Source: an uncultured Candidatus Saccharibacteria bacterium
GTDB lineage: Bacteria; Patescibacteriota; Minisyncoccia; Phycocordibacterales; JACOZG01
Direction of reading: 5' to 3'
DNA: 64,000 bases
Assembly: GCA_964648765.1 (NCBI GenBank)
Contig: CAZYLF010000001.1
Span: 229,797-293,796 of the forward strand
This document shows positions 8,822-31,672 of the stretch, piece after piece. Under the pieces are notes generated by a model. The model was not told where the DNA came from. It did not search any database and worked only from the letters and a program-made list of their open reading frames with translations. Numbering within the stretch: the first letter of the stretch is position 1; each line of letters starts with the position of its first letter. A program made the position numbers and the translations under genes.

Positions 8822-9181
8822 TCAAATTTTATGATCATTTACTTCTGGCCCGGCAAGTAAGTGAAGATGGAGGTGAGGCACACGCAAAAAATTCCCCGCG
8901 TTGAAGATCAGTTTAAAATCACTGATACTTTTTTCTATTGCGAGTTTGGCGGCGGTTAAGTTTAGCTTTCCAATTATCTCTGCATCCTCGTTGTTTGCCT
9001 CAGTGATAGAAACTATTAATTTTTTAGGAATGATTAACCAATGGGTAGAGGCAGCAGGGAACTTACTTTTAATTACGATCAAATCATTGTCTTCATAAAT
9101 AAATTCCGCCGGTTCCTCCTTATCAATAATTTTTTGGAATATCGTTTTCATAATTCTATTTAAAATCATGGCTATCGCCAC
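8822..9181 (-). CDS. HIT family (histidine triad) protein
   Basis: The histidine triad HLHLHLL lies near the C-terminus. Confidence 0.8.
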   Translation of the reverse strand: MAIAMILNRIMKTIFQKIIDKEEPAEFIYEDNDLIVIKSKFPAASTHWLIIPKKLIVSITEANNEDAEIIGKLNLTAAKLAIEKSISDFKLIFNAGNFLRVPHLHLHLLAGPEVNDHKI

Positions 9182-9791
9182 TTAACATTTTAATAAACTT
9201 TAAATTAAAGTTAGGTAAAATCCGCTGGCAAAAGTCTTGGGCAAAACTTGGGCCAATGCCGTCGTGCACACCGAAGGCGATTTGGGGTTTGAGTAAAATC
9301 GCGTAATCAATTGCCTGCGAGACCTTCATCCACGGTCCGGCCACGGGGAGAGCGAGTATCTCAACTTCACGATCGGGGTTGGTAAAAGCGTCGCCCGGGT
9401 ACCACAGTCTCCCGTCGATAAAGAATCCGATATTATCTGCCTGCGGCACCGATGAATGCATTTGAGCGTGCTTCTCGCCAATACCAACCACTCGGATTTC
9501 TCCTAGAGTAAAGTTCTGGTTGTGATCGATTTTCTCGTGAGCAATATTTTCTTTAGTTAAAAGCGCGCTCAGGGAATGATTGGTGTAAATTTTTACCTGG
9601 GGATTTTTAGTAAGTAAAATTTTAAGTGACTCAAGATGGTAGTGGTCTTGGTGCTCATGAGTAAATAAAATGTAATCCAAATTTTCAAGTTTGGAGTGAG
9701 CTTCCGCCGTATAAAACCCCGGGTCGGTGAGAATTCTCTTTCCTTTCGTTTCAATCAATAAACAGCAATGTCCAAATTTAGTAATTTTCAT
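9156..9791 (-). CDS. MBL-fold metallo-hydrolase
   Basis: The HEHQDH (HxHxDH) motif is present. The gene overlaps the downstream HIT gene by 26 nt, which suggests an operon. Confidence 0.8.
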   Translation of the reverse strand: MKITKFGHCCLLIETKGKRILTDPGFYTAEAHSKLENLDYILFTHEHQDHYHLESLKILLTKNPQVKIYTNHSLSALLTKENIAHEKIDHNQNFTLGEIRVVGIGEKHAQMHSSVPQADNIGFFIDGRLWYPGDAFTNPDREVEILALPVAGPWMKVSQAIDYAILLKPQIAFGVHDGIGPSFAQDFCQRILPNFNLKFIKMLSGDSHDFK

Positions 9792-9938
9792 GACCCTATT
9801 TTATCATATCTAAATTTTGAAGACTGAGCGTTGCCAAGTTACACAAAACATGATAGTCAGAAGATGGAAATAGACCAGTTGGTGTGCGCTGACTTGGTAA
9901 AATATTGATCATTGTTACTTAACCTAAGGAGTTTGATC

Positions 9939-10631
9939 ATGGCGAAAAAAGCCACAAAGGCTGCGAGAAAGACGTGTTCGGGTTTTAAGGCTGCGGATGT
10001 TAAGCGAACTTGCAAGCGTTTGAGCAGTCTTGGATTCTTCACGGTGGATAAGATTGAGGTCTATCAGGCGTTGGGCTCAGACCAATATCTTAAAGATACG
10101 GATATCTTACTTGGCCGTATGGCTGATTACTTGCTTCCGACAGATGGCTGGGACCTTAAAAGAATCATCTTGGCTGCGCCCAAAAGTAGTGATTTAGTGA
10201 AGCGAGCACAAAAAATGTTGACTAAGCTGGTCAGATCCGAACTGGAGAAGGACAAGAATCTCAGTGAACTCTACATTCTCCGCCAGAAGACAATCTCAGG
10301 TACAAAACTGGAGCAGGCTGTTGAAGAGAGAATTATTGCGATTTACCAGGAACAGATGGCGCGCATCAGGAGTGTTAAGGACGCCTTCTATTTTTGGTTT
10401 GGTCTGCGGGATGTGAACCCCCCAGCGGTTATCAAAACCGAGGCGGCGGAAACCTTTGTTCGCCAAATTCAGAAAGAGGTGGGAAGTGCTGACTTGGTTG
10501 AATGCTCCACTATGCTCAGTTGGGATCTCAGGATGATTGAGAAAGAGATACCGCCGAGTTGTGTGGCGGCACGGGCTACGGTGATTCGGCGTGTGGCTGA
10601 GCTCCTGCGTCCTTCAGAAAAAAAGAAGTAG
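9939..10631 (+). CDS. Hypothetical protein (basic N-terminus)
   Basis: An ATG at 9939 is preceded by AAGGAG at -8. The longer ORF listed in the track starts at TTG 9912. Confidence 0.5.
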   Translation: MAKKATKAARKTCSGFKAADVKRTCKRLSSLGFFTVDKIEVYQALGSDQYLKDTDILLGRMADYLLPTDGWDLKRIILAAPKSSDLVKRAQKMLTKLVRSELEKDKNLSELYILRQKTISGTKLEQAVEERIIAIYQEQMARIRSVKDAFYFWFGLRDVNPPAVIKTEAAETFVRQIQKEVGSADLVECSTMLSWDLRMIEKEIPPSCVAARATVIRRVAELLRPSEKKK

Positions 10632-10717
10632 TTTTGTTTTCAATATAATCGCCTCGAGGGTTTACTGTCGTAAGTTTACGGCGTCAAATCCCGGGGCGGT
10701 TTTTTATCTTGATATTA

Positions 10718-11092
10718 TTATTTAGTGCTTGCTGATTTTTTACTTACACGCTTTGGGGCTTTGGTTGTTGTAAGGTCAGCCTTAATGTTTTTCCAGTGGC
10801 GTTTGAGATCGCTAGCCAAAGACATTACCTCATTTGGGTCTAGAGATTTCAGCATTTTGTATTTGTTCATCACGGTATCAACAACGGCATAATAGCGATC
10901 CTCATTTACTTCCTTCAAATTCTCAAATTTCTCTAAAACTTCACCTTTAGCTTTAAGCATCCAACCCTTTATCACTTTACGATTTTTTGGCGCATCTTTG
11001 CTTCCGTAGAGAAAGTAGGCGGCGGCTAAAGTCACTAAAACTCCTGCGCCCACACCGGCAATTGTTGCATTATTGTTTGTTTCTTTCTTCAT
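10718..11092 (-). CDS. YtxH-like membrane-anchored protein
   Basis: An N-terminal TM helix with a glycine zipper is followed by a coiled-coil and a lysine-rich tail. Confidence 0.45.
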   Translation of the reverse strand: MKKETNNNATIAGVGAGVLVTLAAAYFLYGSKDAPKNRKVIKGWMLKAKGEVLEKFENLKEVNEDRYYAVVDTVMNKYKMLKSLDPNEVMSLASDLKRHWKNIKADLTTTKAPKRVSKKSASTK

Positions 11093-11336
11093 TTTTTATA
11101 TTTTTACGATTAAAAAATTTTTTAAAATTCATACCTTTTTCCTTTAACCATTTGTGAAATTTGCGAATGTCGTTAATTGCCTCTTCACCTTCTTGCCGAA
11201 TGCTGTGAGATAACATTACACCGTGACGTAAAATTCGAATTAGATAAATAAAAGCTATTACAACAACAACGGTGATTATTATCACCGCAATAGTTGATAC
11301 AAAAAAGAAAATATCAGATTTTAGTACTTCTGCCAT
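11070..11336 (-). CDS. Small membrane protein
   Basis: 88 aa with one hydrophobic helix and a basic tail. It overlaps the downstream gene by 23 nt. Confidence 0.4.
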   Translation of the reverse strand: MAEVLKSDIFFFVSTIAVIIITVVVVIAFIYLIRILRHGVMLSHSIRQEGEEAINDIRKFHKWLKEKGMNFKKFFNRKNIKNEERNKQ

Positions 11337-11441
11337 TAACCCACTCTAGCACACAATCTAAGTTGACGTGGGCGAAAAATTAAAGTACTTTCAATTGTAG
11401 TGTAGGTCTTCGAAAGACTTTTTTAACGAAAGGAGGTAATT

Positions 11442-12632
11442 ATGGGTTTTAAGTTCCGTTACCTTGATCCAGTGTATGCCGCGATTTTTAGTCGTCATGC
11501 AGTGCTTAGTGAACAAGAGACAAACACCCTTATTGATGAGTTCAAAAGAGCTAAATCCAAAACTAAAAAAGCAAAGTTAATGAATCTTTTAGTTTTGGGT
11601 CACCAGAGATTAGTCGCCTCCATTGCTTTGCGTTACTCGGGGCGCGGAGTCCCACCTGATGATCTTATTCAAGAGGGCAATTTTGGTTTGATGAGGGCAG
11701 TGGAAAAATTTAACTTCACAGAAGCAAAATTTTCTACTTATGCCAGTCTTTGGATTAGATCGAAGGTCCGTCGTGCTTTGATTAACCAAAACGGTAGCCC
11801 GTGTGGTGTGTCAGTTTACGGTTACTATAAATCACCCAGACCAATCCGTGGTGAGTTGTCAAATTGTAATCTTGTGCAAGATAAATCATCTGCTTTACCT
11901 GAAACAAACACTATCGCTCGTGAAGAGTTGGCAGAATGTACACTGAGGCTGAGTAATTTTTTGGGTCTTGTGGCGATAGTTCCGACTAAAGCCAAGTCAC
12001 TCAAGGCTTTCAGACTTTACTATGGGCTAGGGCAATTTAATCCTAGGGCGCATGAAGATGTTGGTAAGATCATGGGTGTAACTCGTCAGAGAGTAAGTCA
12101 GTGGAATGCTCGCACTTGGCACATGCTCACCGTGATGGGTAACACATACGATGATTTGAGTTTGAAGCGGGAGTTCAAAAAGTTTGAGGAGCTTCAAAGC
12201 CTTCTGGGGGAGTTTAAAAAACCAGGCTTGATCAAACCTAAAAAATTCTCTCGCGCTGAAAAGGCGGGAATTTTAAATCGCCTACTCACACTGAAATGGG
12301 GCAAGTCATCTCAGGGTGAGGTCTGGGTAATTGTGTGTGAAATCGCAGATGCATTTGGTGTTTTGCCCGAGGAAGTATATGGACCCGTGAAGGATACACA
12401 TAATCGATCTAAGTCCTGGGTAAGAAAAATCGCAATGTATCTAGTAAGACTTGACCTCGGTCTTACTTGTGAGCGAGTGGCACATTTACTCAGGCTCGGA
12501 AATCCTGGAAAAGTGTCGTCTGCTTTTAACCACTTAAAATCAGAAGTTGATTTTAAGCCTGATTTGGCAAAAAAGATCGAGGCAATCCGGCGAAAGTATC
12601 TGCCGTTGATTAAGAAAGGAGAAACAACCTAA
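11442..12632 (+). CDS. Sigma-70 family RNA polymerase sigma factor with C-terminal DnaA-domain-IV-like extension
   Basis: The RBS is AAGGAGG. Region 2 (DDLIQEGNFGLMRAVEKF...YASLWIRSKVRRAL) and region 4 (VGKIMGVTRQRVSQWNAR) are both recognisable. An extra ~150-aa tail contains KIAMYLVRLDLGLTCERVAHLL...KVSSAFNHLK, which resembles the DnaA C-terminal HTH. Confidence 0.75.
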   Translation: MGFKFRYLDPVYAAIFSRHAVLSEQETNTLIDEFKRAKSKTKKAKLMNLLVLGHQRLVASIALRYSGRGVPPDDLIQEGNFGLMRAVEKFNFTEAKFSTYASLWIRSKVRRALINQNGSPCGVSVYGYYKSPRPIRGELSNCNLVQDKSSALPETNTIAREELAECTLRLSNFLGLVAIVPTKAKSLKAFRLYYGLGQFNPRAHEDVGKIMGVTRQRVSQWNARTWHMLTVMGNTYDDLSLKREFKKFEELQSLLGEFKKPGLIKPKKFSRAEKAGILNRLLTLKWGKSSQGEVWVIVCEIADAFGVLPEEVYGPVKDTHNRSKSWVRKIAMYLVRLDLGLTCERVAHLLRLGNPGKVSSAFNHLKSEVDFKPDLAKKIEAIRRKYLPLIKKGETT

Positions 12633-12670
12633 ACCACCGACTTACTTGCGTAAGCCGGTGGTCTTTTTAT
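12632..12670 (+). terminator. Intrinsic terminator
   Basis: A 12-bp stem with one mismatch (CCACCGACTTAC/GTAAGCCGGTGG) is followed by TCTTTTT. Confidence 0.6.
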
Positions 12671-13494: not shown

Positions 13495-13504
13495 GGGTGT
13501 TTTG

Positions 13505-13945
13505 CTAAATTAACTTACGCAACGCTTTTGTTGTTGATCTTACGGCTTTACGGAAACAGGGTTCACTGAAGCGGCACTGTGAGCAACCCGACACATCAGA
13601 AGCCTTTTTGTTTTTATATAGCCACGCACCAGGTGACCAGTGTCGATTTTCGTTGTAAACGAGTATCGGACCGCCCAGGATACTTACCGGGTACACATCC
13701 ACAATATTGTTGCTTTTGAGGAGCAGCCAAGAGTGATTGCAATTTGGGTAAAAGAAGCCATCTTTGACTTGGAGGTCAAACACTTTCCCCGTGGCCCTAG
13801 CCAAAATGTGACAAGACATGATTATCTTATTTCCGTTAGGATAATCTCCAAGTTCAAGATCGGGGAGTGCCTCAACCGCAGCGCGTATGCGTTTAAAAAT
13901 TTCAATATCAGCCTCCGGAATTCGTGACTGTATCCATGGTGTCAT
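13505..13945 (-). CDS. Hypothetical protein, small paralogous family (GGP[IP][LI][YV] motif) member 1
   Basis: The RBS is AGGAGGTG. The segment HSWLLLKSNNIVDVYPVSILGGPILV aligns with HTFLQLDNNLIVDITADQYGGPPIYV of the 14517-14876 gene. Confidence 0.5.
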   Translation of the reverse strand: MTPWIQSRIPEADIEIFKRIRAAVEALPDLELGDYPNGNKIIMSCHILARATGKVFDLQVKDGFFYPNCNHSWLLLKSNNIVDVYPVSILGGPILVYNENRHWSPGAWLYKNKKASDVSGCSQCRFSEPCFRKAVRSTTKALRKLI

Positions 13946-14007
13946 TCCACACCTCCTTTCTAAAATTTAAACTACTCCTTCTTAGAAAAATGTAAAGGAT
14001 TTAGTGA

Positions 14008-14040
14008 TAAAAAAATGACCGAGCTGCGCTAGCTCGGTCG
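14008..14040 (-). terminator. Intrinsic terminator, copy 2 of the TGACCGAGC module
   Basis: Stem GACCGAGCT/AGCTCGGTC is followed by a T-run. It shares the AAAAAAATGACCGAGC...GCTCGGTCG flanks with copy 1. Confidence 0.6.
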
Positions 14041-14194
14041 AGAGTTACTTCTTTTTCGGTTTTGGTTTAATTCTCCGTCTTATTGACCTGGTTTTTTTCT
14101 TGAGTGGTTTTCGTAAGCAGAGGGGATTATTTTCCTCATTCCATTTTCTCTGCCATATTTCCATGATCTGAGTTACTGTAAGCATCAGTGTCTC

Positions 14195-14461
14195 CTAAAA
14201 AATACCCTTTAATTTGTTATGGTGAAAGACTTGGCGTCCATCCCAAACCCCACAACCCACAGCCGCTGTCTCACAAAAACGATCTTCACCACTTGTGGGG
14301 TCTAGATGATATCCAGCATGCACCAAACCTCCTCGGCTTGGCTCGGCAACATACTGGCCAATAAATATCGGTCCACCGCATATGATACATTTTTCTCGCC
14401 GATACCAAGGAGTGGATTTACAGAGTTTTCGCGCCCGCCATTTTCTTACCCATTTAAACAT
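14195..14461 (-). CDS. Small Cys-rich hypothetical protein (possible zinc ribbon)
   Basis: The start is ATG 14461 with AGGAGG 8 nt upstream, not the longer 14593 start in the track. The protein reads MFKWVRKWRARK...CIICGGP...CETAAVGCG. Confidence 0.5.
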   Translation of the reverse strand: MFKWVRKWRARKLCKSTPWYRREKCIICGGPIFIGQYVAEPSRGGLVHAGYHLDPTSGEDRFCETAAVGCGVWDGRQVFHHNKLKGIF

Positions 14462-14472
14462 TACTATCCTCC

Positions 14473-14521
14473 TAAAAAGTGCCTCAACTTTTATCATATC
14501 CCACCCTTTATAATTTTCAAT
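14473..14521 (-). promoter_or_regulatory. Promoter/5'UTR module copy 1 (TTGAAA-N16-TATGAT then conserved leader and RBS)
   Basis: Read on the minus strand it gives TTGAAAATTATAAAGGGTGGGATATGATAAAAGTTGAGGCACTTTTTAGGAGG-ATG. An approximately 49-bp direct repeat recurs at 14895-14943. Confidence 0.5.
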
Positions 14522-14876
14522 ATTTTCGATAGGGCGGGGTGATTGGTCCAACGTAGATTGGAGGACCGCCATATTGGTCGGCCGTGATATCAACTATTAG
14601 ATTGTTATCAAGTTGCAAGAAGGTGTGCGACTCATCAGCGTATTTACCTTTGATTATTTCTCCTTTTTTGAATAGGTGTTTAAGATAAACCGAGGCTAAT
14701 CCGCAATTTAGATTTGGGAACATCTTTTGTGCTCTAGTGACAAACTCTCGCGGATTTTTCAGCCGGTTATAACTTTGGTATAAATCGATCAATAACTTGG
14801 TATCGAGCGCTCCATTCTCAAAATCCTGTCGAGTTTTCGTCGCAATCAATCTTACCTCATTTATTTGTTTGGACAT
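14517..14876 (-). CDS. Hypothetical protein, small paralogous family member 2
   Basis: An internal ATG at 14876 follows AAGGTGG. The longer ORF start at 14909 lies inside the repeated leader. It is a paralogue of the 13505-13945 gene. Confidence 0.5.
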   Translation of the reverse strand: MSKQINEVRLIATKTRQDFENGALDTKLLIDLYQSYNRLKNPREFVTRAQKMFPNLNCGLASVYLKHLFKKGEIIKGKYADESHTFLQLDNNLIVDITADQYGGPPIYVGPITPPYRKY

Positions 14877-14894
14877 ATACCACCTTACTTTCTG

Positions 14895-14943
14895 TAAAAA
14901 GTGCCTCAACTTTTATCGTATCTCACCCTTTATAATTTTCAAT
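14895..14943 (-). promoter_or_regulatory. Promoter/5'UTR module copy 2
   Basis: Read on the minus strand it gives TTGAAAATTATAAAGGGTGAGATACGATAAAAGTTGAGGCACTTTTTA. It differs from copy 1 at 3 positions. Confidence 0.5.
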
Positions 14944-14982
14944 GATTTAACGCGTCAAAGTTTCTTTTCAGCACTTTTTGAT

Positions 14983-15240
14983 TTAATTACCCCTCGCTAC
15001 GCTCAGAGTGACAATACAATTTTCCACTGCATCTTCTTTGGAGGGGAAGTACTCCTCAAAAGTCTCTGCCCTCCAGTGCCAAGATTTAGTTGTAGGACTA
15101 TACGTACTCCAACTTAGGCACTTTAGTTCTTGGTCGTAGGCATCACTGCCCAAGGGTTGGACTTTCTGAGACTTGCGCCAAAAATAGCCTGTTGTACTCA
15201 GCAAAATGATAACTAAAATTATCAAAATCTTATTTAGCAT
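14983..15240 (-). CDS. Small secreted/membrane-anchored hypothetical protein
   Basis: 85 aa with an N-terminal hydrophobic helix (ILIILVIILLSTTGYF). Confidence 0.4.
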   Translation of the reverse strand: MLNKILIILVIILLSTTGYFWRKSQKVQPLGSDAYDQELKCLSWSTYSPTTKSWHWRAETFEEYFPSKEDAVENCIVTLSVARGN

Positions 15241-15379
15241 GAAATGATATTACCACAGGAATGATCCGATAAAAATACTAGGGCTCTTGAGAGTAATCTG
15301 ATCCTAGTCCTATTACCCTGTTAGGTTTTTATGTGGTTTAACAAAAAAGTTACGTTTTGAATATATTAATTTAGTAGAA

Positions 15380-15736
15380 TCATTTACTGTATAACAGGTA
15401 TGCATGTTTTATAAGTATGTTGTTTATTTGAGCATTTTGTAGTTCCATACTTCCGTGTTCAATAGAGAAAGTACTTTTTATGTTTTTGATAAAGTCATCT
15501 TTGGAATCCAGTAAAACAATTCTGGATAGGTCTCTAAGTTCGTTAGGATTTAGATTTTTTCTGAAGACATTAGCTATCTGGGATAAATCTTCTTGTGTGT
15601 CCAAATTAGAACCACCGATCACAACATCCCACAATGCGTTATCATCTCTTTTAACAATAATAAAAGTAGAAATATCCTTAGTGTTTCTAATTTCACTTAA
15701 GGAAGAACTGAGTTTGTTGATTATTTCTTTTTCCAT
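15380..15736 (-). CDS. Hypothetical protein, downstream partner of HEPN-like gene
   Basis: A 118-aa ORF begins 5 nt after the HEPN-like gene ends. It carries no MNT GSxxRG motif. Confidence 0.45.
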   Translation of the reverse strand: MEKEIINKLSSSLSEIRNTKDISTFIIVKRDDNALWDVVIGGSNLDTQEDLSQIANVFRKNLNPNELRDLSRIVLLDSKDDFIKNIKSTFSIEHGSMELQNAQINNILIKHAYLLYSK

Positions 15737-15740
15737 TTAA

Positions 15741-16157
15741 TTATATTTCTTTCCACAAATACCTCGCTATCCGCTGAGCTGATTTGACCGCCCCACTGGC
15801 TTGGCTGAGCATCATTTTACCCTTAATCGGAGCGTAACGCATTTCAGGATTCCACTGCAACAATATACTCCAGTCAGCTAGATAAGTGCTTTTTATCTTA
15901 TTGCCAATATGCGGCGGAACTTGTTTTAAAAGTTCTTCAAGATTATGAGTCTTTATCCTGGCCACAGCGTTAAACTCTTCATTAGTGTGAGGAATGCCAG
16001 ACAGGCAAATATTTTTACAAATTATTGCCTTTAAAGCTATTTCAATTGCGTATCCGGAGATATACAAAGACCCCTCATACGATTTGTTCTTGAGTAGAAT
16101 TTTTGAGTCTTTGATGCGAGCCCTGGATATTTTATCTAACTCTTGAGTGGATATCAT
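15741..16157 (-). CDS. HEPN-like domain protein
   Basis: 138 aa, all alpha-helical. SYEGSLYISGYAIEIALKAIICK matches the HEPN helix-1/2 pattern, and ARIKTHNLEEL gives an R-x3-HN motif, which is imperfect against Rx4-6H. Confidence 0.45.
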   Translation of the reverse strand: MISTQELDKISRARIKDSKILLKNKSYEGSLYISGYAIEIALKAIICKNICLSGIPHTNEEFNAVARIKTHNLEELLKQVPPHIGNKIKSTYLADWSILLQWNPEMRYAPIKGKMMLSQASGAVKSAQRIARYLWKEI

Positions 16158-16177
16158 GGATTCATTAACTCTCTTGC

Positions 16178-16615
16178 TTAGCGAACCCGTCTTACTTGTA
16201 CAGTTTCGCTCATACCATCTACACTTAGCTCTGTACCATTAATACCGTCAATAACCGTCGCTTCTGGTCTATAGGCGTAATGGTAACTGTATTTGTATTC
16301 AGACTGTTCCCAGATGGTACCATTTTGAAATTCAAATTTTGCATCTTGAAAAAAACCTTTGAAATCAGAGACAATGGGGCCACTCTGAAGCTTGCTTACA
16401 CGGATTACTTCAATAGGTGGGCAACCACTAATCTGGACCTCCAATACCCATTTTCCCGCAGATTTATAAATGCGCACATATGGACGATATGCATATTTGT
16501 ACATGTATTTATAACGCCTTTGCTGCCACACCTGCCCATTGGTCAAATTAAAAACAGCCCCACCGTTAAAACCAGTGAATGCCCCAGAAATCTGACTATT
16601 AATTTCTTGGTCCAT
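16178..16615 (-). CDS. Hypothetical protein with two tandem ~60-aa repeats (F.F.NG.[VI]W.Q..YKY.Y.YAYRP)
   Basis: The internal duplication is visible directly in the translation. Confidence 0.5.
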   Translation of the reverse strand: MDQEINSQISGAFTGFNGGAVFNLTNGQVWQQRRYKYMYKYAYRPYVRIYKSAGKWVLEVQISGCPPIEVIRVSKLQSGPIVSDFKGFFQDAKFEFQNGTIWEQSEYKYSYHYAYRPEATVIDGINGTELSVDGMSETVQVRRVR

Positions 16616-16639
16616 TTTTATAGATTATATCAAAATATT

Positions 16640-16930
16640 AAGTAATAAATGGCCCGCACAAAGCAAGGATATCTTTGTAAAGTTTTTCGAGTGTGACATG
16701 GCTTAACTGCCGGCCAGGACTCTCCCGCGCCTCTTGTCTCGCCGCCGCTCGACTCGGGCTGGGCACCGCCTCGCGAATTTATTTGCTAATAAATTAACGC
16801 TCCGGCGTCCTCGTCCCTGGCGCGAGTGAAGCAGTTCACTCGCTGCCGGCAGTTATCCGCTACGCTCCTAACTGGGGCTCTTGTCTGACGTTAGAACCCT
16901 TTTACTACAAGGTGAGAGCGAGTTTTATTA
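16640..16930. ncRNA. GC-rich, ORF-free, highly structured region; candidate structured RNA of unknown class
   Basis: GC content is well above the ~40% background. A perfect 9-bp hairpin GCGAGTGAA/TTCACTCGC sits at 16821-16842. An AT hairpin AATTTATT/AATAAATT is also present. CTTAACTGCCGGCC (16698-16711) pairs with GCTGCCGGCAGTTA (16844-16857) over long range. No ORF of 60 aa or more is present. Confidence 0.4.
16703..16720. repeat. Direct repeat of the tRNA-Gln 3' end (CTGCCGGCCAGG-ACTC); candidate att site
   Basis: A 12-nt exact match plus ACTC to the plus-strand sequence 26113-26131 (CTGCCGGCCAGGGACTC), which forms the 3' acceptor/T-arm of tRNA-Gln. Confidence 0.45.
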
Positions 16931-16957
16931 TCGTTGCCCAGCATTTGCTATGCAGAG

Positions 16958-17476
16958 CTAAACACCTTTAACCCCACTCTGCTTTTCACTATTGTTCAAG
17001 GTGGCGTTTATTTTCTCCAAGAGTTCACTCGTATTGAAACGTCCGTGATTTTCCAATCTCAATAACGGCAACCCTGCATCTTTGAGCACTCGTTCAACTT
17101 CAACATCTCGGCCCTTGCGGTCCTGCCTCTCGTGCGTGCGGTCATCAAGTTCTATTGCGAGTTTCGGTGAGAGGTATGACTTATCGCACAAAACAAAATC
17201 CACTGATTTCTGGCTTATATGCCGAAAAGCTCCTCGCCAATTTTGCCCCACAACTTTATTGTCTACGATGGATGGAAGATGGACCTGTGGAAAGATGAGA
17301 TATTTTTCTCCCACTGCGACGACAAGAGCATCGTAGCACTCGTGTTCAGCACGAGACATAAAAAAGTTTTTCTGCTTGTATTTATATTTCCGTGGCTCAT
17401 CCACTTTGCCTCGTAAAATCTCTACGAGAACGCCGATGACCACAATGACTGCAACAATAATGAGTATCTTTATCAC
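16958..17476 (-). CDS. DUF2726-like (NERD/restriction-endonuclease-like fold) protein with N-terminal TM
   Basis: The segment FVLCDK...LAIELDDRTHERQDRKGRDVEVERVLKDAGLPLLR resembles the DUF2726 core. Confidence 0.55.
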   Translation of the reverse strand: MIKILIIVAVIVVIGVLVEILRGKVDEPRKYKYKQKNFFMSRAEHECYDALVVAVGEKYLIFPQVHLPSIVDNKVVGQNWRGAFRHISQKSVDFVLCDKSYLSPKLAIELDDRTHERQDRKGRDVEVERVLKDAGLPLLRLENHGRFNTSELLEKINATLNNSEKQSGVKGV

Positions 17477-17523
17477 AAAGACATTTTAACTTATTTTGAT
17501 GATTTACCCCACCCTCGCTCTCA

Positions 17524-18165
17524 CTATAAACTTTGGTATGCCTCTACTTGCTGGTTGTATTCGTATTGGACCATCTGATAATTGGTTCCCCATTTTTGTT
17601 TTGCTTTCGCCATAATATCTGGGTATTTTGTCTGTGCCATTATCCATTCATACGCTTCTACCTGTTGATTGTATTCATACTGGACCATTTGGTAGTTGTT
17701 GCCCCACTTCTGCTTTGCCTTAGCCATTATGTCGGGATACTTTGTTTGAGCCACTACCCAGTCGTATGCTTCAACCTGCTGGTCATACTCGTATTTAACC
17801 ATCTGATAGTTATCGCCCCATTTTGCCGAAGCATTTGATTTCAAAACCACAAGAACGCTGGCTCTGTCTGATTGTGTCGCTGGTGCTGGAGTTGGTGTGG
17901 GAGCTGGGGTCGTCGGCACTGTTGCAGGTTTGGGAGTTGTCTTTGGGGTTTGCTTAACTGGAGCAACTGCTTCTGTGGTTTTAACAGCTTCTGCCGTTTT
18001 TTGATTTTCTACTGGAGCTGGCGTTGTTGTTTCAGATGCCACTTGTGAACTGGTGCTATCGCCACCCAACGAACCAAGAAAGCCGAGGAAAATAATAATG
18101 GCGAGAGTAATGAACCACCATCGCTTGTAAAAAGGTTTCTTTGCTTTGTTGATTTGTGTGTCCAT
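17524..18165 (-). CDS. Membrane-anchored repeat protein (Pro/Thr-rich linker + 3 tandem 33-aa repeats AKAKQKWGxNYQMVQYEYNQQVEAYEWIMAQTKYPDIM)
   Basis: An N-terminal TM is followed by a PT-rich low-complexity linker and three near-identical repeats. Confidence 0.55.
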   Translation of the reverse strand: MDTQINKAKKPFYKRWWFITLAIIIFLGFLGSLGGDSTSSQVASETTTPAPVENQKTAEAVKTTEAVAPVKQTPKTTPKPATVPTTPAPTPTPAPATQSDRASVLVVLKSNASAKWGDNYQMVKYEYDQQVEAYDWVVAQTKYPDIMAKAKQKWGNNYQMVQYEYNQQVEAYEWIMAQTKYPDIMAKAKQKWGTNYQMVQYEYNQQVEAYQSL

Positions 18166-18189
18166 ATTTTTATAAAGTTATTTTAATAA

Positions 18190-19245
18190 TTATTGGCACT
18201 GCGGACTTTTAGTTCTTGATGGATACGCGGCTAAAAGAGCATCCAACGTGTCGTAGGATTTCAAATAGCTGGCACTCAAACTTTTCCATCCATCGCACGC
18301 TTCTGGGTAGTAGTATTTTGAGCTGTAATATGAGGACGTATAAAACTTTCCAGTTGATTGCGTAGTAGCTGGAGGGGCTGTCTGGGTGCTTGTGTTTGAG
18401 CTTGTCGTGTCTCCATTACAAGTAGTCGGGGACCAAAGACCCAACTGGGCTGTCTGTGCGGATTTTTGTGCCGTCTTAAACTCCGCTTGGTATTTGTAAG
18501 GAGTGTTGTAGGTGTACTCGTGAGCATACCCCTGCTCAATCATAGATTTGTTGTAGAAAAGCCCGTCATCCCGATAGACATAGGCAAGGAGGCGGTCATA
18601 CTTATCTCTCTCGCCTTGAGTTGGGTCTATTTCTATCCGCACCTTTTTTCCAGAGAGCAATTCTTTTCCTTTGTTTGATGCCTCTTTACCGAAACACTGA
18701 ACGGGCTTTCTTGGGTCCACTGTCTCTGGTGTATCCAATCCGATGAGGCGTAGCGTTTCCACTTTCCCATTCATACTGATTTTAATCGTGTCTCCGTCTA
18801 CAACTTCTGTAACAGAGTAGTAGGTATATTGAGACGAAGATGGCTGTGCGGTTGCAGGTTTGGTCGTAACTACTGGTGTCTCCGTCTTTGCTTGCGTTAC
18901 GGCAGGAGCTGGAGCATTAGGAGTTGTTGTAGCAGTATCTATTGGGTTTGGTGCAACATTATTTTGGCTCTGCGTCTGTGTTGAGATGACATTATCTGCC
19001 ACCTGCGTAGGCGTAGTGTTTCCAGAAATCAATAAAATGGCAGAGAAAAAAGTGATGAGACAGAGAGCTCCTGTCGCTGTGTATTTCCAGCTTTTCTTAT
19101 CTATGAGCTTGTAAGCAACGAACGCTCCTACTGCATACACTATCGTATTGGGTAAAGCGATGATTGCGATTATAAAAATGATGAGGGCGATACCCATCTG
19201 GTATCCAGTGGAGAGTGCTTTATATTTTGAGATTATATTTTTCAT
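18190..19245 (-). CDS. Membrane-anchored secreted thermonuclease (SNase/micrococcal nuclease family)
   Basis: The C-terminal domain LRLIGLDTPETVDP...CFGKEAS...GKKVRIEIDPTQGERDKYDRLLAYVY matches the SNase fold with catalytic D/E/R residues. A Thr-rich linker and TM helix precede it. The start is taken at the internal ATG 19245 before the TM helix. The ORF extends to 19395. Confidence 0.7.
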   Translation of the reverse strand: MKNIISKYKALSTGYQMGIALIIFIIAIIALPNTIVYAVGAFVAYKLIDKKSWKYTATGALCLITFFSAILLISGNTTPTQVADNVISTQTQSQNNVAPNPIDTATTTPNAPAPAVTQAKTETPVVTTKPATAQPSSSQYTYYSVTEVVDGDTIKISMNGKVETLRLIGLDTPETVDPRKPVQCFGKEASNKGKELLSGKKVRIEIDPTQGERDKYDRLLAYVYRDDGLFYNKSMIEQGYAHEYTYNTPYKYQAEFKTAQKSAQTAQLGLWSPTTCNGDTTSSNTSTQTAPPATTQSTGKFYTSSYYSSKYYYPEACDGWKSLSASYLKSYDTLDALLAAYPSRTKSPQCQ

Positions 19246-19525
19246 AGTAATAGTAATAAAAAATCGCCCTAATAGTTTGGGCAATTTGTTTTTTTCCAAC
19301 AAAAAGCCCATCACAAGGAAGGTCCTTTCGGATACCTCTGCACGAGTTTCCCCGTGCAACGACGTGAACGCCCTTATGATGGGTTCTCTGTTCACGTCGT
19401 TTTATGACCATATCTCAAGAAAATCTCTTGAGGGTTAGGTCCCACTGCATATTCAGTTGTGCCTACATTTAACCACACTTCTTATCAATTTCAAAGAAAA
19501 ATGATAGGATGCTGTTACTATTACT

Positions 19526-20260
19526 ATGACAATTACGATTGAAGAAAAGTTCATAAAGGATGCACGCTTGATATTGGACGAGCTCCAAGCGGAGCTTATA
19601 GCTTCCAAAGACGGCATCATACGTTACCTTTTTATAAAGGAAGACAAAGCACCCAACGAGCGAGAGCAGAGACGTATCATTCGTTGGCTTATAAACGCAG
19701 GGGCACTTCAATCTATTGGAGAAATACACGAAGACCTACCATCTATTTTTGTTACGCTTAATCCATTCGTTAAAACTGCTACTATCGGATTTCGGTTAGG
19801 TATAGATAAAACACTTTTTGCCGAGGTGAGAAAAATCTGCGAAAGTGATTTGAGTAAAAAATCAGCCAAAGAACTTTTGGACCAAGTAGAAACACTGGGC
19901 AGAGCGAAACGCCTTGAAACTCAAAAACTAACGGAGCCAGAGAAAGTCGTCATCAAACCATTTCTTGATGAACCAAGTAAGACAGTCATTCTTGCTGGAA
20001 AAAAATCTACAATCCCCGTTGGCAATCAGTGGGTTTTATGCAAAGAGCTTTTTAATAAACCAGCAAGCGATTGGGTGAAAGAAAATGATGTGGTCCACCT
20101 TTTTAACAAAGACGGCAAGCAGAGTTTCTACGATGCACAGCGTCTACTCAATGCTCGCATAGAAAAAGATTTGGGCATAAAGGATTTCATTGAATATGAG
20201 ACAGCTATGGCGAGGATAAACCCAAAAACGATTGAAAAACTGAACCATTCAGAAAAATAG
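19526..20260 (+). CDS. Hypothetical protein
   Basis: A 244-aa ORF. It is the first plus-strand gene of the element after a divergent intergenic region. Confidence 0.5.
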   Translation: MTITIEEKFIKDARLILDELQAELIASKDGIIRYLFIKEDKAPNEREQRRIIRWLINAGALQSIGEIHEDLPSIFVTLNPFVKTATIGFRLGIDKTLFAEVRKICESDLSKKSAKELLDQVETLGRAKRLETQKLTEPEKVVIKPFLDEPSKTVILAGKKSTIPVGNQWVLCKELFNKPASDWVKENDVVHLFNKDGKQSFYDAQRLLNARIEKDLGIKDFIEYETAMARINPKTIEKLNHSEK

Positions 20261-20309
20261 AGATTTCTGACTCACGAATGAGTCAAACGAACACAGGTAC
20301 GCTCAAGGC

Positions 20310-20663
20310 GTGCCTTTTTCGTTCCCAAAAATTGCACACATTATTAGCCAATATCCAATTACAATGACCAACAAAAAAACCAAAAGGTCATCAACAACCG
20401 ATGGACAAAAAGAAGCTCCGCCAAATGACCCCACGGCGGTGTTCACTACTTATGACCTCGGTGTATCCACCGCACTTTTGTGTGCGGATTTTGAGCTTGT
20501 CTCGGTAGACAAAGAGAACCCACGAAAAGCATTATTCATCTTCAAGAAAGCAGACGGCATTGAAGATGTTGCGAACCGATACTTTTCGGACAGGTTAGAA
20601 GTCAAAGCAAGGTCGTTCTTTGACCATCTCAAAGCTCTCAAGAATAAGCTTTATTCCGAGTAG
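20310..20663 (+). CDS. Hypothetical protein
   Basis: A GTG start at 20310. An alternative ATG lies at 20364. Confidence 0.4.
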   Translation: MPFSFPKIAHIISQYPITMTNKKTKRSSTTDGQKEAPPNDPTAVFTTYDLGVSTALLCADFELVSVDKENPRKALFIFKKADGIEDVANRYFSDRLEVKARSFFDHLKALKNKLYSE

Positions 20664-20665
20664 CT

Positions 20666-20851
20666 ATGCAGTTAGCGGATGAACATATCAAAGAGTTTCA
20701 GGTGCTCTACAAAAAGCACTACGGCGTTGAAATAAGCACTGCCGAAGCTCTGGAAAAAGGCATACGTCTCATCCGCTTGATGGAGATTGTTTTGAAGCAC
20801 GAAGCAAAGAAACAAGCGACACAGACGGTCCCAACTCCGATTACCAATTAA
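20666..20851 (+). CDS. Small hypothetical protein (61 aa, helical)
   Basis: The ORF is tightly packed between its neighbours. Confidence 0.35.
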   Translation: MQLADEHIKEFQVLYKKHYGVEISTAEALEKGIRLIRLMEIVLKHEAKKQATQTVPTPITN

Positions 20852-20861
20852 AAAAATAATT

Positions 20862-23051
20862 ATGAACCTATCAAACATTACAATCAAAGAATATCTTACC
20901 GAGAAAGGCATACCCTTTCGTGAGAGTGGCAAAGAGCTCATCGCCAAGTGCCTTTTCAATGATTGCGACAGAGACAGCAAAGGTGATGAAGCTCACCTTT
21001 ATTTCAGCACGGAAACAGGACAATATGATTGCAAAAAATGCGGCGAAAAAGGAAACCTGCTTACGCTCGCAAAACATCTTGGCGATACAGGACCGAAACC
21101 ACGCAAGGCAAATGCTTTCAATGCCGAGCTCGTAGAGAAATGTCATCTTGCACTGCCACCCCATATCAGAGAGTACCTGCACAAGCGTGGGCTTACGGAT
21201 GCCGTTATAGACGATTATAAGCTCGGTTACGGGCAGTTCTACCGCAAGCCGTGGATTACTATCCCTATCAAAGACATCTACGGCAACTATTCATTTTTCA
21301 AATTGAGACAGGACCCAGCGTTCGGCAACGACAAAATCACTTTCCCGAAAGGAGCGGAAGCCCAGCTTTATGATTGGGAAACTCTCGTAAAAAGTGATGT
21401 GAACAAGCCAATGATTATCAGTGAGGGTGAGATGGACCGATTGCTTCTCATTTCAAAAGGAGTGCCAGCGATAACCTCCACTCACGGAGCGATGACATTC
21501 AAAGATGAGTGGGTTGAAAAAGTCGGCAAAGACAGAAAAATCTACATCTGCTTTGATAACGACGACGCTGGCAAAAAAGGGTCCGAACGAGTAGCAAAGA
21601 TGGTGGAAAATGGTGGATGCGAGACACACATCATCACACTTCCCGAAGAAGTCGGAGAGCACGGAGACATCACAGATTATTTCGTGAAGCTCAATGGGTC
21701 CGTAGATGATTTGTTCAGCAAATACGCAAAGCCATACCCAGAAAAAATTGATACCACACAATTTTCTGCGATGAGTTCGGAGCAACTCTTGGACACCCTC
21801 GGACTTACCATCAAATACGATGCCGAAAATAAGCTGGCTACTTTCCTTTGCGAGCTGTCGGCTTATACAGAAAGCTCACAGTTTAATATCAGTTATAATG
21901 CACCATCTTCAACAGGTAAAAGCTATATACCGACAGAGATAGCTCGCCTATTCCCAGAGGATGACGTGATGGAGATTGCTTACTGCTCACCCACAGCTTT
22001 TTTCCACGATGTCGGGCAGTATGACAAGGAAAAGAACAGCTACTTGGTAGACCTCTCACACAAGATACTCATCTTCTTGGACCAACCGCACAACGAACTG
22101 CTTGCCCGATTGCGTCCACTCCTGTCGCACGACAAGAAAGAGATTGCTATCAAAATCACCGACAAGACCCAAAAGAATGGGACCAAAACAAAGAACATCC
22201 TTTTGCGTGGCTATCCATCCGTTATTTTCTGCACGGCTGGGCTCCGCATAGACGAGCAAGAAGCGACACGTTTTCTGCTTCTCTCTCCAGAGGTCAATCA
22301 AGACAAAATACAGCAAGGTATCAGTGCCACTATTCTCAAAGAAGCAGACACTGATAGTTTCAAAAGCTGGCTTGAAGAAAACCCAGACCGAGCATTACTC
22401 AAAGAGCGTATCCGTGCTATCAAACTGGAGAACGTTAAAGAGATAAACATCGCATCGCACGAAACTATCAAAGAGAGGTTTCTGAAAAATAACAAGACAC
22501 TCAAGCCACGCCACCAACGAGACATCAAACGTCTTTTGTCTCTCATCAAATCCTTTGCCATCCTCAATGTCTGGTGGCGAGAAAGAGATGGGTCCACGAT
22601 TACTGCGAATGAAGATGACATCAATGATGCTTTCAAGCTCTGGGACAAAATATCTGTGAGTCAGGAGTTGAACTTGCCCCCTTACATCTACAATCTCTAC
22701 AAAGAGGTCATATTGCCAGCGTGGGAGGCAAAAAACGACAGCAGGAGCGAGGCGTTTGAGGAACTCACAGGCAAGCTCGGGCTCTCACGCCAAGAGGTCC
22801 TCGGGAAGCATTTTGCGGTATACGGCAGGATGCTTGATAGCCATCAACTCCGTCAACAGATACTCCCTATGCTTGAAACAGCAGGGCTTATTGTGCAGGA
22901 ACAAGACCCGAGCGATAAACGCAAGATGATGATTTTCCCCTCTACCCTGTATCAACTTTCTGAACCAAAAGGAAATAGTGAGACGGACAGTGGGGTAAAA
23001 AACACCGAACAGAAAGACGATGAGATTATTAGCGATAACATAGATTTTTAA
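20862..23051 (+). CDS. DNA primase: zinc-binding domain + TOPRIM + C-terminal P-loop domain
   Basis: An N-terminal Cys cluster CLFNDC...CKKCGEKGN forms a primase-type zinc finger. TOPRIM motifs IISEGEMD and ICFDNDDAGKKG are present. Downstream lie a Walker-A-like APSSTGKS and a Walker-B-like ILIFLDQ. Confidence 0.7.
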   Translation: MNLSNITIKEYLTEKGIPFRESGKELIAKCLFNDCDRDSKGDEAHLYFSTETGQYDCKKCGEKGNLLTLAKHLGDTGPKPRKANAFNAELVEKCHLALPPHIREYLHKRGLTDAVIDDYKLGYGQFYRKPWITIPIKDIYGNYSFFKLRQDPAFGNDKITFPKGAEAQLYDWETLVKSDVNKPMIISEGEMDRLLLISKGVPAITSTHGAMTFKDEWVEKVGKDRKIYICFDNDDAGKKGSERVAKMVENGGCETHIITLPEEVGEHGDITDYFVKLNGSVDDLFSKYAKPYPEKIDTTQFSAMSSEQLLDTLGLTIKYDAENKLATFLCELSAYTESSQFNISYNAPSSTGKSYIPTEIARLFPEDDVMEIAYCSPTAFFHDVGQYDKEKNSYLVDLSHKILIFLDQPHNELLARLRPLLSHDKKEIAIKITDKTQKNGTKTKNILLRGYPSVIFCTAGLRIDEQEATRFLLLSPEVNQDKIQQGISATILKEADTDSFKSWLEENPDRALLKERIRAIKLENVKEINIASHETIKERFLKNNKTLKPRHQRDIKRLLSLIKSFAILNVWWRERDGSTITANEDDINDAFKLWDKISVSQELNLPPYIYNLYKEVILPAWEAKNDSRSEAFEELTGKLGLSRQEVLGKHFAVYGRMLDSHQLRQQILPMLETAGLIVQEQDPSDKRKMMIFPSTLYQLSEPKGNSETDSGVKNTEQKDDEIISDNIDF

Positions 23052-23055
23052 CACT

Positions 23056-23634
23056 ATGGAAGAAACATCACAAAAACAAATTGATGCCAACCGAGAGAAC
23101 GGCAAGAAAGGCGGAGTGAAGACCGACGAGGGCAAAGCTGTGAGCAAATATAACGCTATCAAACACGGTATTTTGAAAGAGGTCGTCTCTGATTACGAGC
23201 AGAGTTTCTACGAGGACATTATCGAACGTCTCAATGACCAATTCAGCCCCGTAGGAGTGCTTGAGAAGATGCTCGTGGACCGAGTGGGTGTGTATTACCT
23301 CAAGCTCTACCGAGTAGCAAAGGCAGAGAATGAGTATATGCAGTCGGTCCTCAATCCGAGAAAGGTTACAGTCAGAGACACCCTTGATATTGGGATGAAC
23401 TACACTGAAACCATAATAGAAAATGAGGGCTACATTCCAAAGGTCGGTTTGGGTCCAGTAGAAAAACTCTCCGACACTTATCTCCGCTACGAAATAGCGA
23501 TTGAGAACAGATTGTACAAAGCACTTCACGAACTCCAACGATTACAGTCAGCAAGAAATGGTGAAAAGGTCCCACCCCCATTAGCATTAGATATTGATGT
23601 GTCAGGAGAAAAGGAAAATGGGTTCGTTTCGTAA
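23056..23634 (+). CDS. Hypothetical protein
   Basis: A 192-aa ORF placed 4 nt after the primase stop. Confidence 0.45.
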   Translation: MEETSQKQIDANRENGKKGGVKTDEGKAVSKYNAIKHGILKEVVSDYEQSFYEDIIERLNDQFSPVGVLEKMLVDRVGVYYLKLYRVAKAENEYMQSVLNPRKVTVRDTLDIGMNYTETIIENEGYIPKVGLGPVEKLSDTYLRYEIAIENRLYKALHELQRLQSARNGEKVPPPLALDIDVSGEKENGFVS

Positions 23635-23773
23635 AAGTGAAAAACGCCATCCGTATTTGGTGTATTCACTCAAAAAGACGAAAAAAGCTCTCAACACAAA
23701 CGTAAAATGTCGGTTTTATTAGGGAAAATAGGGTAACAATCTCAAATGATTTCGGCAATTTATTTCCAAAACT

Positions 23774-24370
23774 ATGAGTAAAAGCGAAGCAGACAACGTG
23801 AAAAAAATCTCTACGGCTTTCCTAAAAAAGCACGGCTACTTCAAAGGGTGGAGGTCAGGTACGATTACTTGGACCAACAACGGCTTATGGGGTGAAAATA
23901 AAAGCAGTGTGGGGGTAGAGGTTTCTACATCAGATGGAGTGAGTCATCTCCGTATTACCTACACCCAGACAGACAGGGATACGGACGAAAAGAAAGAGTT
24001 TGATTACAAAGTACCACTCACCACTACCCCGTGCCGTTATGGAGGCGAGAGATACTGGTTTCTCTGTCCTCTGGTTAAAAATAATGTGCATTGTGGCAAA
24101 CGAGTAGGCACACTCTACAAAGACGGAGATTACTTTGGCTGTCGCCACTGCTATGACCTCGGCTATAGTTCTCAAAAAACCAATCACCGATACAAAATGC
24201 TACCCCTGTTCAACGTGTTCACGATTGAGAAGAAAATTGAGGAACTTCAAGGGCAGATAAAGCGTCCCCACTACGCTGGCAAGCCAACAAGAAAAGAAAG
24301 ACAGCTTGAAAAGCTATATGAACAGGTAAACACCAACTATGCTCAACTTTTACAAAAAAAATTGTTATAA
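23774..24370 (+). CDS. Hypothetical protein with Cys4 cluster (C..C...C..C)
   Basis: 198 aa. CPLVKNNVHCGKRVG...CRHC suggests a zinc ribbon. Confidence 0.45.
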   Translation: MSKSEADNVKKISTAFLKKHGYFKGWRSGTITWTNNGLWGENKSSVGVEVSTSDGVSHLRITYTQTDRDTDEKKEFDYKVPLTTTPCRYGGERYWFLCPLVKNNVHCGKRVGTLYKDGDYFGCRHCYDLGYSSQKTNHRYKMLPLFNVFTIEKKIEELQGQIKRPHYAGKPTRKERQLEKLYEQVNTNYAQLLQKKLL

Positions 24371-24519
24371 TGCTTATGTTGTCCCAGTTAGTAATTGTTT
24401 TGCCAGAGGTTTTTTATTGCAAAATGGAACCCGAGAGGGGCGTTCTGCCAACTATTTTGCAGTCCTCTGGATTACACTTATAGCTGGGACAACCAGAGCG
24501 TCCCTTTCGGGTTTTTAAT

Positions 24520-26172: not shown

Positions 26173-26183
26173 ACGAGCCGGCA
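26113..26183 (-). tRNA. tRNA-Gln (anticodon CUG)
   Basis: The minus-strand sequence TGCCGGC-TC-GTCT-AATGGTA-GGAC-A-CATCC-CTCTGGA-GGATG-GTAT-TGGGG-TTCGAGT-CCCTG-GCCGGCA-G folds as a cloverleaf. It has a U1-A72 pair, U8, GG in the D-loop, a TTCGAGT T-loop and a G73 discriminator. CCA is not encoded. Confidence 0.75.
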
Positions 26184-26244
26184 ATGATGTCCACAATCTA
26201 ACACAATATTGGTAGTTTATGAAGACGTAAAAGGGGTGGAGGGG

Positions 26245-31567: not shown

Positions 31568-31666
31568 TAGTTATTAAGAGTGTGGCGAGAGAATTGGCTC
31601 GATGACCCACCAGCAACCCTTATCAATAAGAAGGTGCTCCCAACCCCGTAAGCGGGGGAAGATAAT
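31568..31666 (+). promoter_or_regulatory. SAM-I (S-box) riboswitch-like aptamer upstream of metK
   Basis: The sequence TTATTAAGAGTGTGGCGAGAGA...GGCTCGATGACCC...GCAACC...GGTGC...CCCCGTAAGCGGGGG...AGATAA matches the conserved SAM-I blocks UUAUCAAGAG, GGCCCGAUGA, GCAACC, GGUGC, a P4 hairpin and the 3' P1 strand. Confidence 0.5.
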
Positions 31667-31672
31667 TTTTTT

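Follow-up and report, generated by a model that had tools for sequence, protein, structure and literature searches.

A single gene on the forward strand of a 64,000-nucleotide stretch of the genome of an uncultured Candidatus Saccharibacteria bacterium from groundwater (contig CAZYLF010000001.1, positions 229,797 to 293,796; the whole of this stretch is called the window below) encodes a 396-amino-acid protein, P0001, in which a sigma factor of the sigma-70 family is followed by a C-terminal tail whose homology to domain IV of the replication initiator DnaA is well supported. Sigma factors are known to read promoters through sigma2 at the -10 element, sigma3 at the extended -10 and sigma4 at the -35, with sequences further upstream being read via the C-terminal domain of the alpha subunit (alpha-CTD) or by separate activators. 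On balance we favour the reading, its mechanism included, that P0001 is an alternative sigma-70-family factor into which a third module, for promoter recognition or activation, has been built. If this is true, a sigma factor carrying its own additional sequence-reading helix-turn-helix (HTH), derived from the replication initiator, would represent a different route to promoter specificity. The fusion is apparently rare and undescribed: it is not described in the full-text literature searched, which left most subscription journals outside its scope, and it may be catalogued among the InterPro architectures, which were outside the search. The finding would be surprising to a specialist in transcription and is directly testable, while being rare and based on prediction.

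The ATG-started open reading frame (ORF) is found in the ORF list of the window exactly as an earlier note, made from the letters alone, had given it, and the peptide KIAMYLVRLDLGLTCERVAHLLRLGNPGKVSSAFNHLK, on which that note had based its comparison with DnaA, lies at residues 329-366 of the protein. The gene and its parts are as follows, with the basis of each assignment in brackets.

11442..12632, + strand: whole gene, encoding the 396-residue sigma-70-family/DnaA-domain-IV fusion P0001 (ORF and domain matches)
11432..11436, + strand: Shine-Dalgarno sequence GGAGG, 5 nucleotides before the ATG (direct reading of the sequence)
11463..11588, + strand: N-terminal segment, residues 8-49, which lines up with the relatives' region 1.2 (alignment to Sigma70_r1_2 of P0122 and P0123)
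11589..11792, + strand: sigma region 2, residues 50-117, for core binding and -10 recognition (PF04542, E 3.4e-17; motif FSTYASLWIRS)
11793..11966, + strand: short sigma2-sigma4 connector, residues 118-175, with region 3 deleted (length compared with relatives)
11967..12146, + strand: sigma region 4, residues 176-235, a -35-type HTH (PF04545, TIGR02937 and alignment to region 4 of relatives)
12147..12308, + strand: family-specific helical linker, residues 236-289, with the motif LQxxxGE...P..F (conservation and predicted helices)
12309..12611, + strand: DnaA domain IV-like HTH domain, residues 290-390 (weak Pfam and NCBIfam matches, profile and Foldseek)
12631..12664, no strand assigned: terminator-like hairpin with a 15-bp stem between the convergent sigma and Band_7 genes (consensus scan only)

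That P0001 is a member of the sigma-70 family is evident from its N-terminal half. Pfam places Sigma70_r2 (PF04542) on residues 50-113 with 62.4 bits against a cut-off of 24, TIGR02937 of NCBIfam is passed across residues 49-225 (62 bits, cut-off 42.9), and Sigma70_r4 (PF04545) lies just below threshold on residues 189-224 (E 2.2e-4, 21.1 bits, cut-off 24.1), in a segment that aligns with region 4 of the related proteins P0122, P0123 and P0124. The full-length structural model matches SigA, SigS and sigma32 in holoenzyme structures with a probability of 1.0. Among known sigma factors, region 2 is most similar to that of the RpoD type (the best NCBIfam matches being RpoD, SigA and RpoS), and identity to RpoD-like group 1/2 factors is 30-35% across the sigma half, that of region 2 to the relatives described below being 53-55%. 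P0001 differs from the group 1/2 factors in being without region 3, in several motif residues and in its C-terminal extension of approximately 160 amino acids. The earlier note had called regions 2 and 4 canonical; both are present, but the adjective claims too much, since region 3 is missing and key residues are changed. The region 3 that marks group 1-3 sigma-70 factors is lacking (no match to PF04539 in Pfam), and the connector between regions 2 and 4 is 58 residues long, compared with 110-113 in P0124, P0122, P0123 and the fusion encoded at locus L008. Residues 118-151 are predicted to be disordered, with a predicted local distance difference test score (pLDDT) below 50, and Sigma70_r1_2 is not called by Pfam in the N-terminal segment. 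Where P0122 retains YATWWIRQ, P0001 reads YASLWIRS, leucine replacing the first tryptophan, and where P0122 retains TRERIRQ, P0001 reads TRQRVSQ, with serine at the second arginine position.

Such losses are what would be expected if P0001 were a decaying or functionless paralogue, a formerly complete sigma fusion drifting under relaxed constraint, an explanation that we consider improbable. It draws on the deleted region 3, the altered consensus residues and the disordered connector, and on an identity to its syntenic counterparts of only 37-39%, against 74-98% for the neighbouring genes. Against decay, the ORF of 396 codons is intact and preceded by a strong Shine-Dalgarno sequence, all of the folded domains of the protein are predicted confidently, and sigma factors of the extracytoplasmic function (ECF) group work without region 3. 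Moreover, P0132, a full-length fusion of 391 amino acids that is 36% identical to P0001 from end to end, is without region 3 at the same place and has no frameshifts, so that the short form is not a one-off and its long-term maintenance under purifying selection is indicated. The gene itself looks real and expressed, to judge from its Shine-Dalgarno sequence, its intact ORF and its identity across independent assemblies: the sequence is 100% identical in two Logan SRA-run assemblies (L001 and L002), and an NCBI genome records the protein as well, on a contig of 553 kb. In the region ahead of the gene the promoter scan recognised no consensus promoter, and a TTGACG at 11363-11368 was noticed by eye only; the hairpin at 12631-12664 is probably a shared terminator of the sigma and Band_7 genes.

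For the tail, Bac_DnaA_C (PF08299) is the sole Pfam match (residues 297-347, E 0.002), with a score of 16.5-18.6 bits (18.6 for the tail alone) that is below the gathering cut-off of 31.5, and the best NCBIfam matches are DnaA models (E 3e-4), aligned at model positions 342-436 of 437. The similarity in sequence is weak yet specific, and more than a chance resemblance. With the single tail as query, the indexed protein search found no close relative and the search of PDB sequences no significant match; the indexed search with an alignment of six tails returned only P0129 and nothing new, and that with the full-length protein only P0001 itself and generic RpoD matches covering the sigma half. 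A narrow profile was thus built from the three closest tails only (P0001, P0124 and P0121), these being chosen to avoid circularity, and with it the top four matches among PDB sequences were all DnaA, in register across domain IV, the best being Aquifex DnaA (E 1.7e-4) and Bacillus subtilis DnaA (E 5e-3). The AlphaFold model of the tail has a pLDDT of 85-95 over its globular part, and when it was compared with the PDB using Foldseek the top 12 matches were again all DnaA. It superposes on complexes of DnaA domain IV with DNA with a template modelling (TM) score of 0.81-0.84 and a root-mean-square deviation (rmsd) of 1.8 Å (for 3PVP_A, TM 0.83 and rmsd 1.8 Å over 93 columns; for 1J1V, TM 0.81). 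In the viral structure library, all named matches among the 50 listed were DnaA C-terminal proteins of uncultured phages, about 20 of the 50 being nameless. The identification of the tail as a diverged homologue of DnaA domain IV rests above all on the family profile, the fold match and the distant relatives P0122 and P0123, which carry Bac_DnaA_C. The resemblance to the DnaA C-terminal HTH that the earlier note had seen is thereby borne out, and the match to PF08299 that it had proposed to look for holds for the family profile, which hits DnaA domain IV, though not for the single sequence.

Compared with DnaA domain IV itself (PF08299; 1J1V, 3PVP), the tail shares the HTH fold, the IAMYL core, an arginine at R407, a basic residue at K415 and a basic charge, and it differs in being joined to a sigma factor instead of the AAA+ domain III, as well as in its sub-threshold score as a single sequence. 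The DnaA signature (R/K)DHTTVxH reads GNPGKVSS in the tail, R399 and P423 are replaced, and, unlike DnaA domain IV, the tail ends in a family-specific helix with the motif IRxxY(LP), in which R383 and Y386 are invariant across the family. The DnaA initiator model TIGR00362 scores only 19.7 bits against a cut-off of 343.9, with neither domain III nor the full DnaA architecture present. P0001 is not a DnaA; nor is it an MzaA or a catalogued ECF factor with a C-terminal extension.

When 1.84 billion cluster representatives were scanned exhaustively with HMMER, using only the tail as query, ten matches came up. Eight of these carry Bac_DnaA_C, and three of the eight (P0122, P0123 and P0124) are themselves sigma factors. 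P0122, of 692 amino acids, has regions 1.2-4 followed by two DnaA_C domains (Bac_DnaA_C 96 bits); P0123 is a sigma fusion of 729 amino acids (64 bits); and P0124 is one of 454 amino acids, in which the Bac_DnaA_C match is weak, as in P0001. The cut-off is also passed by P0129 (38.9 bits) and P0121 (32 bits). The remaining two matches, the tetratricopeptide repeat (TPR) protein P0127 and the repeat protein P0130, are spurious. P0121 had at first the appearance of a stand-alone protein of 160 amino acids, a view in which upstream stops were misleading; its cluster holds the full-length P0132, of which it is a fragment or an assembly variant. Among species-representative genomes, a scan found one locus, L008, in 'Patescibacteria group bacterium H52-bin079', where the gene is open to the contig edge and includes region 2.4 and the same linker and tail. 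The only match of the metagenome-contig scan, L009, is a chance match in an unrelated protein of 492 amino acids. P0122 has an NCBI twin in Candidatus Paceibacter, P0131.

At least six distinct fusion proteins are thus recognised (P0001, P0124, P0132, L008, P0122/P0131 and P0123), and they form a short class without region 3 (P0001, P0132), a medium class with region 3 (P0124, L008) and a long class (P0122/P0131, P0123) in which two DnaA_C domains follow regions 1.2-4, these having consensus motifs in P0122 and P0123. In every relative recovered the extension is present and collinear, in the order sigma, linker, DnaA_C, as the earlier note would have it if the tail were a conserved part of the protein. 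The linker motif LQxxxGE...P..F is kept in P0001, P0124, P0121/P0132, P0122 and L008, and the linker is predicted to form helices at residues 238-255 and 271-286. That a second DNA-binding domain has been appended to a sigma factor, as had been suggested, is an architecture which homology, predicted fold and recurrence together support. Both fusions with named organisms belong to Patescibacteria, also known as the Candidate Phyla Radiation (CPR), and two others are from a groundwater site; the attribution to CPR made from the letters alone fits the relatives in the H52-bin079 metagenome-assembled genome and in Candidatus Paceibacter. The small genomes of these bacteria hold few transcription factors, and their transcription is essentially unstudied; a sigma factor of this kind, if it works as proposed, would be of particular relevance to them. 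Database annotation of the long forms goes no further than the sigma half, P0122 being annotated at its source as 'RNA polymerase primary sigma factor' and P0131 as rpoD.

The long-form fusion of Candidatus Paceibacter, P0122/P0131, is encoded at L004 10001-12079 and L011 6621-8756, and a C-terminal region of about 125 amino acids in it has no domain call; a second sigma4-like domain that was considered at the C-terminus of P0122 is unsupported (BLASTP E 0.34, no Pfam match). Approximately 2 kb downstream of P0122/P0131 are parB and a second sigma-70 gene of 274 amino acids, followed in L004 by a tyrosine recombinase gene.

Outside the fusions, the nearest sequence relatives of the tail are stand-alone or tandem DnaA_C proteins (phage 'DnaA C-terminal' proteins, P0125, P0126, P0128 and P0129), which differ from P0001 in having no sigma domains, another locus and another linker. 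From them it is clear that DnaA domain IV also circulates on its own, as a DNA-binding module outside the initiator, and with the fusions they document it as a portable one in three settings, namely sigma-fused, stand-alone and in tandem arrays. In P0126, P0128 and P0133, of 816-891 amino acids, Pfam recognises Bac_DnaA_C five or six times and no AAA+ domain; this multi-HTH architecture is unusual in itself, and one of the three carries the JGI annotation 'DnaA'.

To compare DNA-reading residues, the tail was aligned with the DnaA segments of Aquifex and B. subtilis that the profile had matched in the PDB and with E. coli domain IV, the numbering of which is self-consistent with the published P423, D433, H434, T435 and H439. 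All six DnaA base-reading residues are replaced (R399H, P423E, D433N, H434P, T435G and H439S), while the IAMYL core, the R407 equivalent and the basic residue at the K415 position are kept, and the domain is basic (isoelectric point 9.6, net charge +7), like genuine DnaA domain IV. The second DnaA_C domain of P0123 keeps R399, H434, T435, T436 and H439 (NHTTAIH), and the DHTT..H signature is kept both there and in domain 2 of the stand-alone protein P0125. Because some long-form and stand-alone domains retain this signature, the sequences indicate that the fusion tails descend from a genuine DnaA-type reader.

The earlier note had gone on to imagine transcription initiation coupled to DnaA-box-like sites. 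Spelled out, the tail would read DnaA boxes and so hold the sigma factor at oriC or at promoters under DnaA control. For canonical boxes this is not supported, and we regard such a coupling of transcription to replication as very unlikely. The homology to domain IV, the parB gene near P0122/P0131 and the residues kept in domain 2 of P0123 are in its favour. Set against these are the exchange of R399, P423, D433, H434, T435 and H439 for H, E, N, P, G and S, and the frequency of the boxes: TTATCCACA-like 9-mers with at most one mismatch number 17 in the window where 16.2 are expected, which is the chance level, exact TTATCCACA has no copy in the window, and no TTATCCACA-like site lies upstream of the gene itself. 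The window is also without dnaA or an oriC-like context. With six residues replaced and boxes at chance frequency, recognition of the canonical DnaA box by the tail appears unlikely; binding of duplex DNA with some other specificity is plausible.

The same loss of base contacts can be taken further, to a tail that is not a DNA reader and has been co-opted from a DnaA HTH as a regulatory or protein-interaction module, for example an intramolecular anti-sigma-like domain that occludes sigma2 or sigma4 until a signal arrives. There are parallels in ECF factors with C-terminal extensions (ECF41, ECF42, ECF56/SigG1 and ECF238), which like P0001 have a minimal sigma2-connector-sigma4 body plus an extra C-terminal domain. 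Their extensions are SnoaL-like, TPR or Cys-rich and regulate sigma activity, whereas that of P0001 is a DnaA_C domain on a sigma body that is RpoD-like in sequence and not ECF-like, and two comprehensive ECF surveys list no DnaA-type or other DNA-binding extension. The IRxxY motif and the conserved linker could be protein interfaces. However, the fold is that of a dedicated DNA-binding HTH, the R407 and K415 equivalents and the basic surface are kept, the DnaA signature survives in long-form relatives, and Pfam detects no sensor-type domain or ligand-binding feature; we judge this explanation to be rather unlikely.

In the promoter-recognition reading that we prefer, the proposed mechanism starts from the geometry of the holoenzyme, in which sigma4, seated on the beta-flap, contacts the -35 element and turns its C-terminus towards the upstream DNA on which alpha-CTD and class I and class II activators act. 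Since the sigma4 C-terminus points upstream, the tail could bind there: a basic HTH tethered by a helical linker of about 55 residues would reach duplex DNA at approximately -40 to -70 and might thereby add a third, built-in module for promoter recognition or activation, with a sequence specificity of its own rather than that for the canonical DnaA box. The retained R407 and K415 positions, the IAMYL core, the basic charge and the conserved linker motif are all compatible with DNA binding. Several points weigh against it. Sigma activity itself is putative in a protein whose region 3 is missing and whose -10 and -35 recognition residues are off consensus; the DnaA base-reading residues are lost, so that sequence-specific binding by the tail is assumed; the predicted TM score of the full-length model is 0.47, which means that the geometry of the tail relative to sigma4 is not predicted; the sigma C-terminal extensions described hitherto are all regulatory; and the family is tiny and very fast-evolving, which might also reflect relaxed constraint.

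The genomic setting of the gene bears on this rapid evolution. Four genomes share its position, with a HIT gene upstream of the sigma gene and a Band_7 gene and/or tRNA-Gln downstream; the HIT gene directly adjoins the sigma gene in L003 and L010, and four extra genes intervene in the window. Compared with the window copy, the Band_7 protein shows 98% identity in L003 and 91% in L008, and the HIT proteins are 74-83% identical, while the sigma fusions are 37-51% identical in every pairwise comparison and do not track the divergence of the flanks. Compared as DNA, L003 and the window align at 91% from 12616, exactly where the final 17 bp of the sigma gene begin, through Band_7, and blastn finds no similarity between the body of the sigma gene and L003. 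Because the flanks are so similar, the more parsimonious account, we infer, is that recombination brought in a distant allele and not that the gene diverged in situ. That the gene differs so extremely between loci that are almost identical in other respects suggests that alleles differing in specificity may be exchanged in this way, and an identity of 37% in the sigma gene beside 98% in its neighbour would offer a natural system for studying the exchange of regulatory specificity between strains. A bolder proposal, possible but in our estimation short of probable, is that a Patescibacteria-specific sigma family has captured the DnaA DNA-binding domain as a third promoter-recognition module, so that the sigma factor would bring its own activator, and that in the lineage of the window the gene acts as a hypervariable cassette at a fixed site of the chromosome, where recombination can swap promoter specificity and rewire a regulon between near-identical genomes; the Candidatus Paceibacter version, annotated as a primary sigma factor, carries two DnaA_C domains.

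A variable locus also raises the question of whether P0001 belongs to a mobile element or an anti-phage defence system, for example as an MzaA-like sigma factor, rather than being a chromosomal regulator. Its best NCBIfam and PADLOC match is indeed MzaA (NF041931), and the site is a hotspot of insertions, with the four extra upstream genes, GIY-YIG and Bro-N genes in L010 and, 1 kb away, a 12.6-kb element with a serine recombinase. The MzaA match, though, extends over nothing but the generic region 2 and scores 103 bits where the cut-off is 800, the other PADLOC defence models give no meaningful E-values among the neighbours, a scan of 2.9 million viral contigs found no relatives of the fusion, and the chromosomal position is kept in four genomes with or without insertions. 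We therefore hold a role in defence or mobility to be highly improbable, and retain P0001 as a candidate alternative sigma factor with its own upstream-reading module. No further sigma or DnaA_C domain is encoded elsewhere in the 64-kb window.

The variable segment between the conserved flanks spans 9152-12615 in the window and 183-1638 in L003. The four window genes absent from L003 encode an MBL-fold hydrolase (9156-9791) and proteins of 239, 124 and 88 amino acids; in L010, the GIY-YIG and Bro-N genes are downstream of the sigma gene. What appears to be an integrated mobile element, about 12.6 kb long (window 13500-26200), lies beside tRNA-Gln (26112-26183, minus strand). Its genes include those for a large serine recombinase of 550 amino acids (24520-26172) and a Toprim primase-like protein of 729 amino acids (20862-23051), together with an SNase-domain gene, DUF2726, DUF5659 and many small hypothetical ORFs. 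The match to tRNA-Gln lies only some 1 kb (L008) or 0.4 kb (L010) past the Band_7 or sigma gene, and this proximity suggests that the element is absent from both.

Within the element, a LOOT RNA (Rfam RF03000, 72 bits against a gathering cut-off of 46.4) is found at 19319-19441 on the minus strand; the longest SNase-domain ORF (18190-19395) has its start inside this RNA, which is upstream of a shorter call of that gene. Among the small ORFs at the left end is a 54-nucleotide direct repeat (14473-14526 and 14895-14948), the two copies of which are 93% identical and 422 bp apart. Further along the window, a SAM riboswitch (RF00162, 59.8 bits) occupies 31568-31668 on the forward strand, upstream of an ORF of 311 amino acids at 31721-32656.

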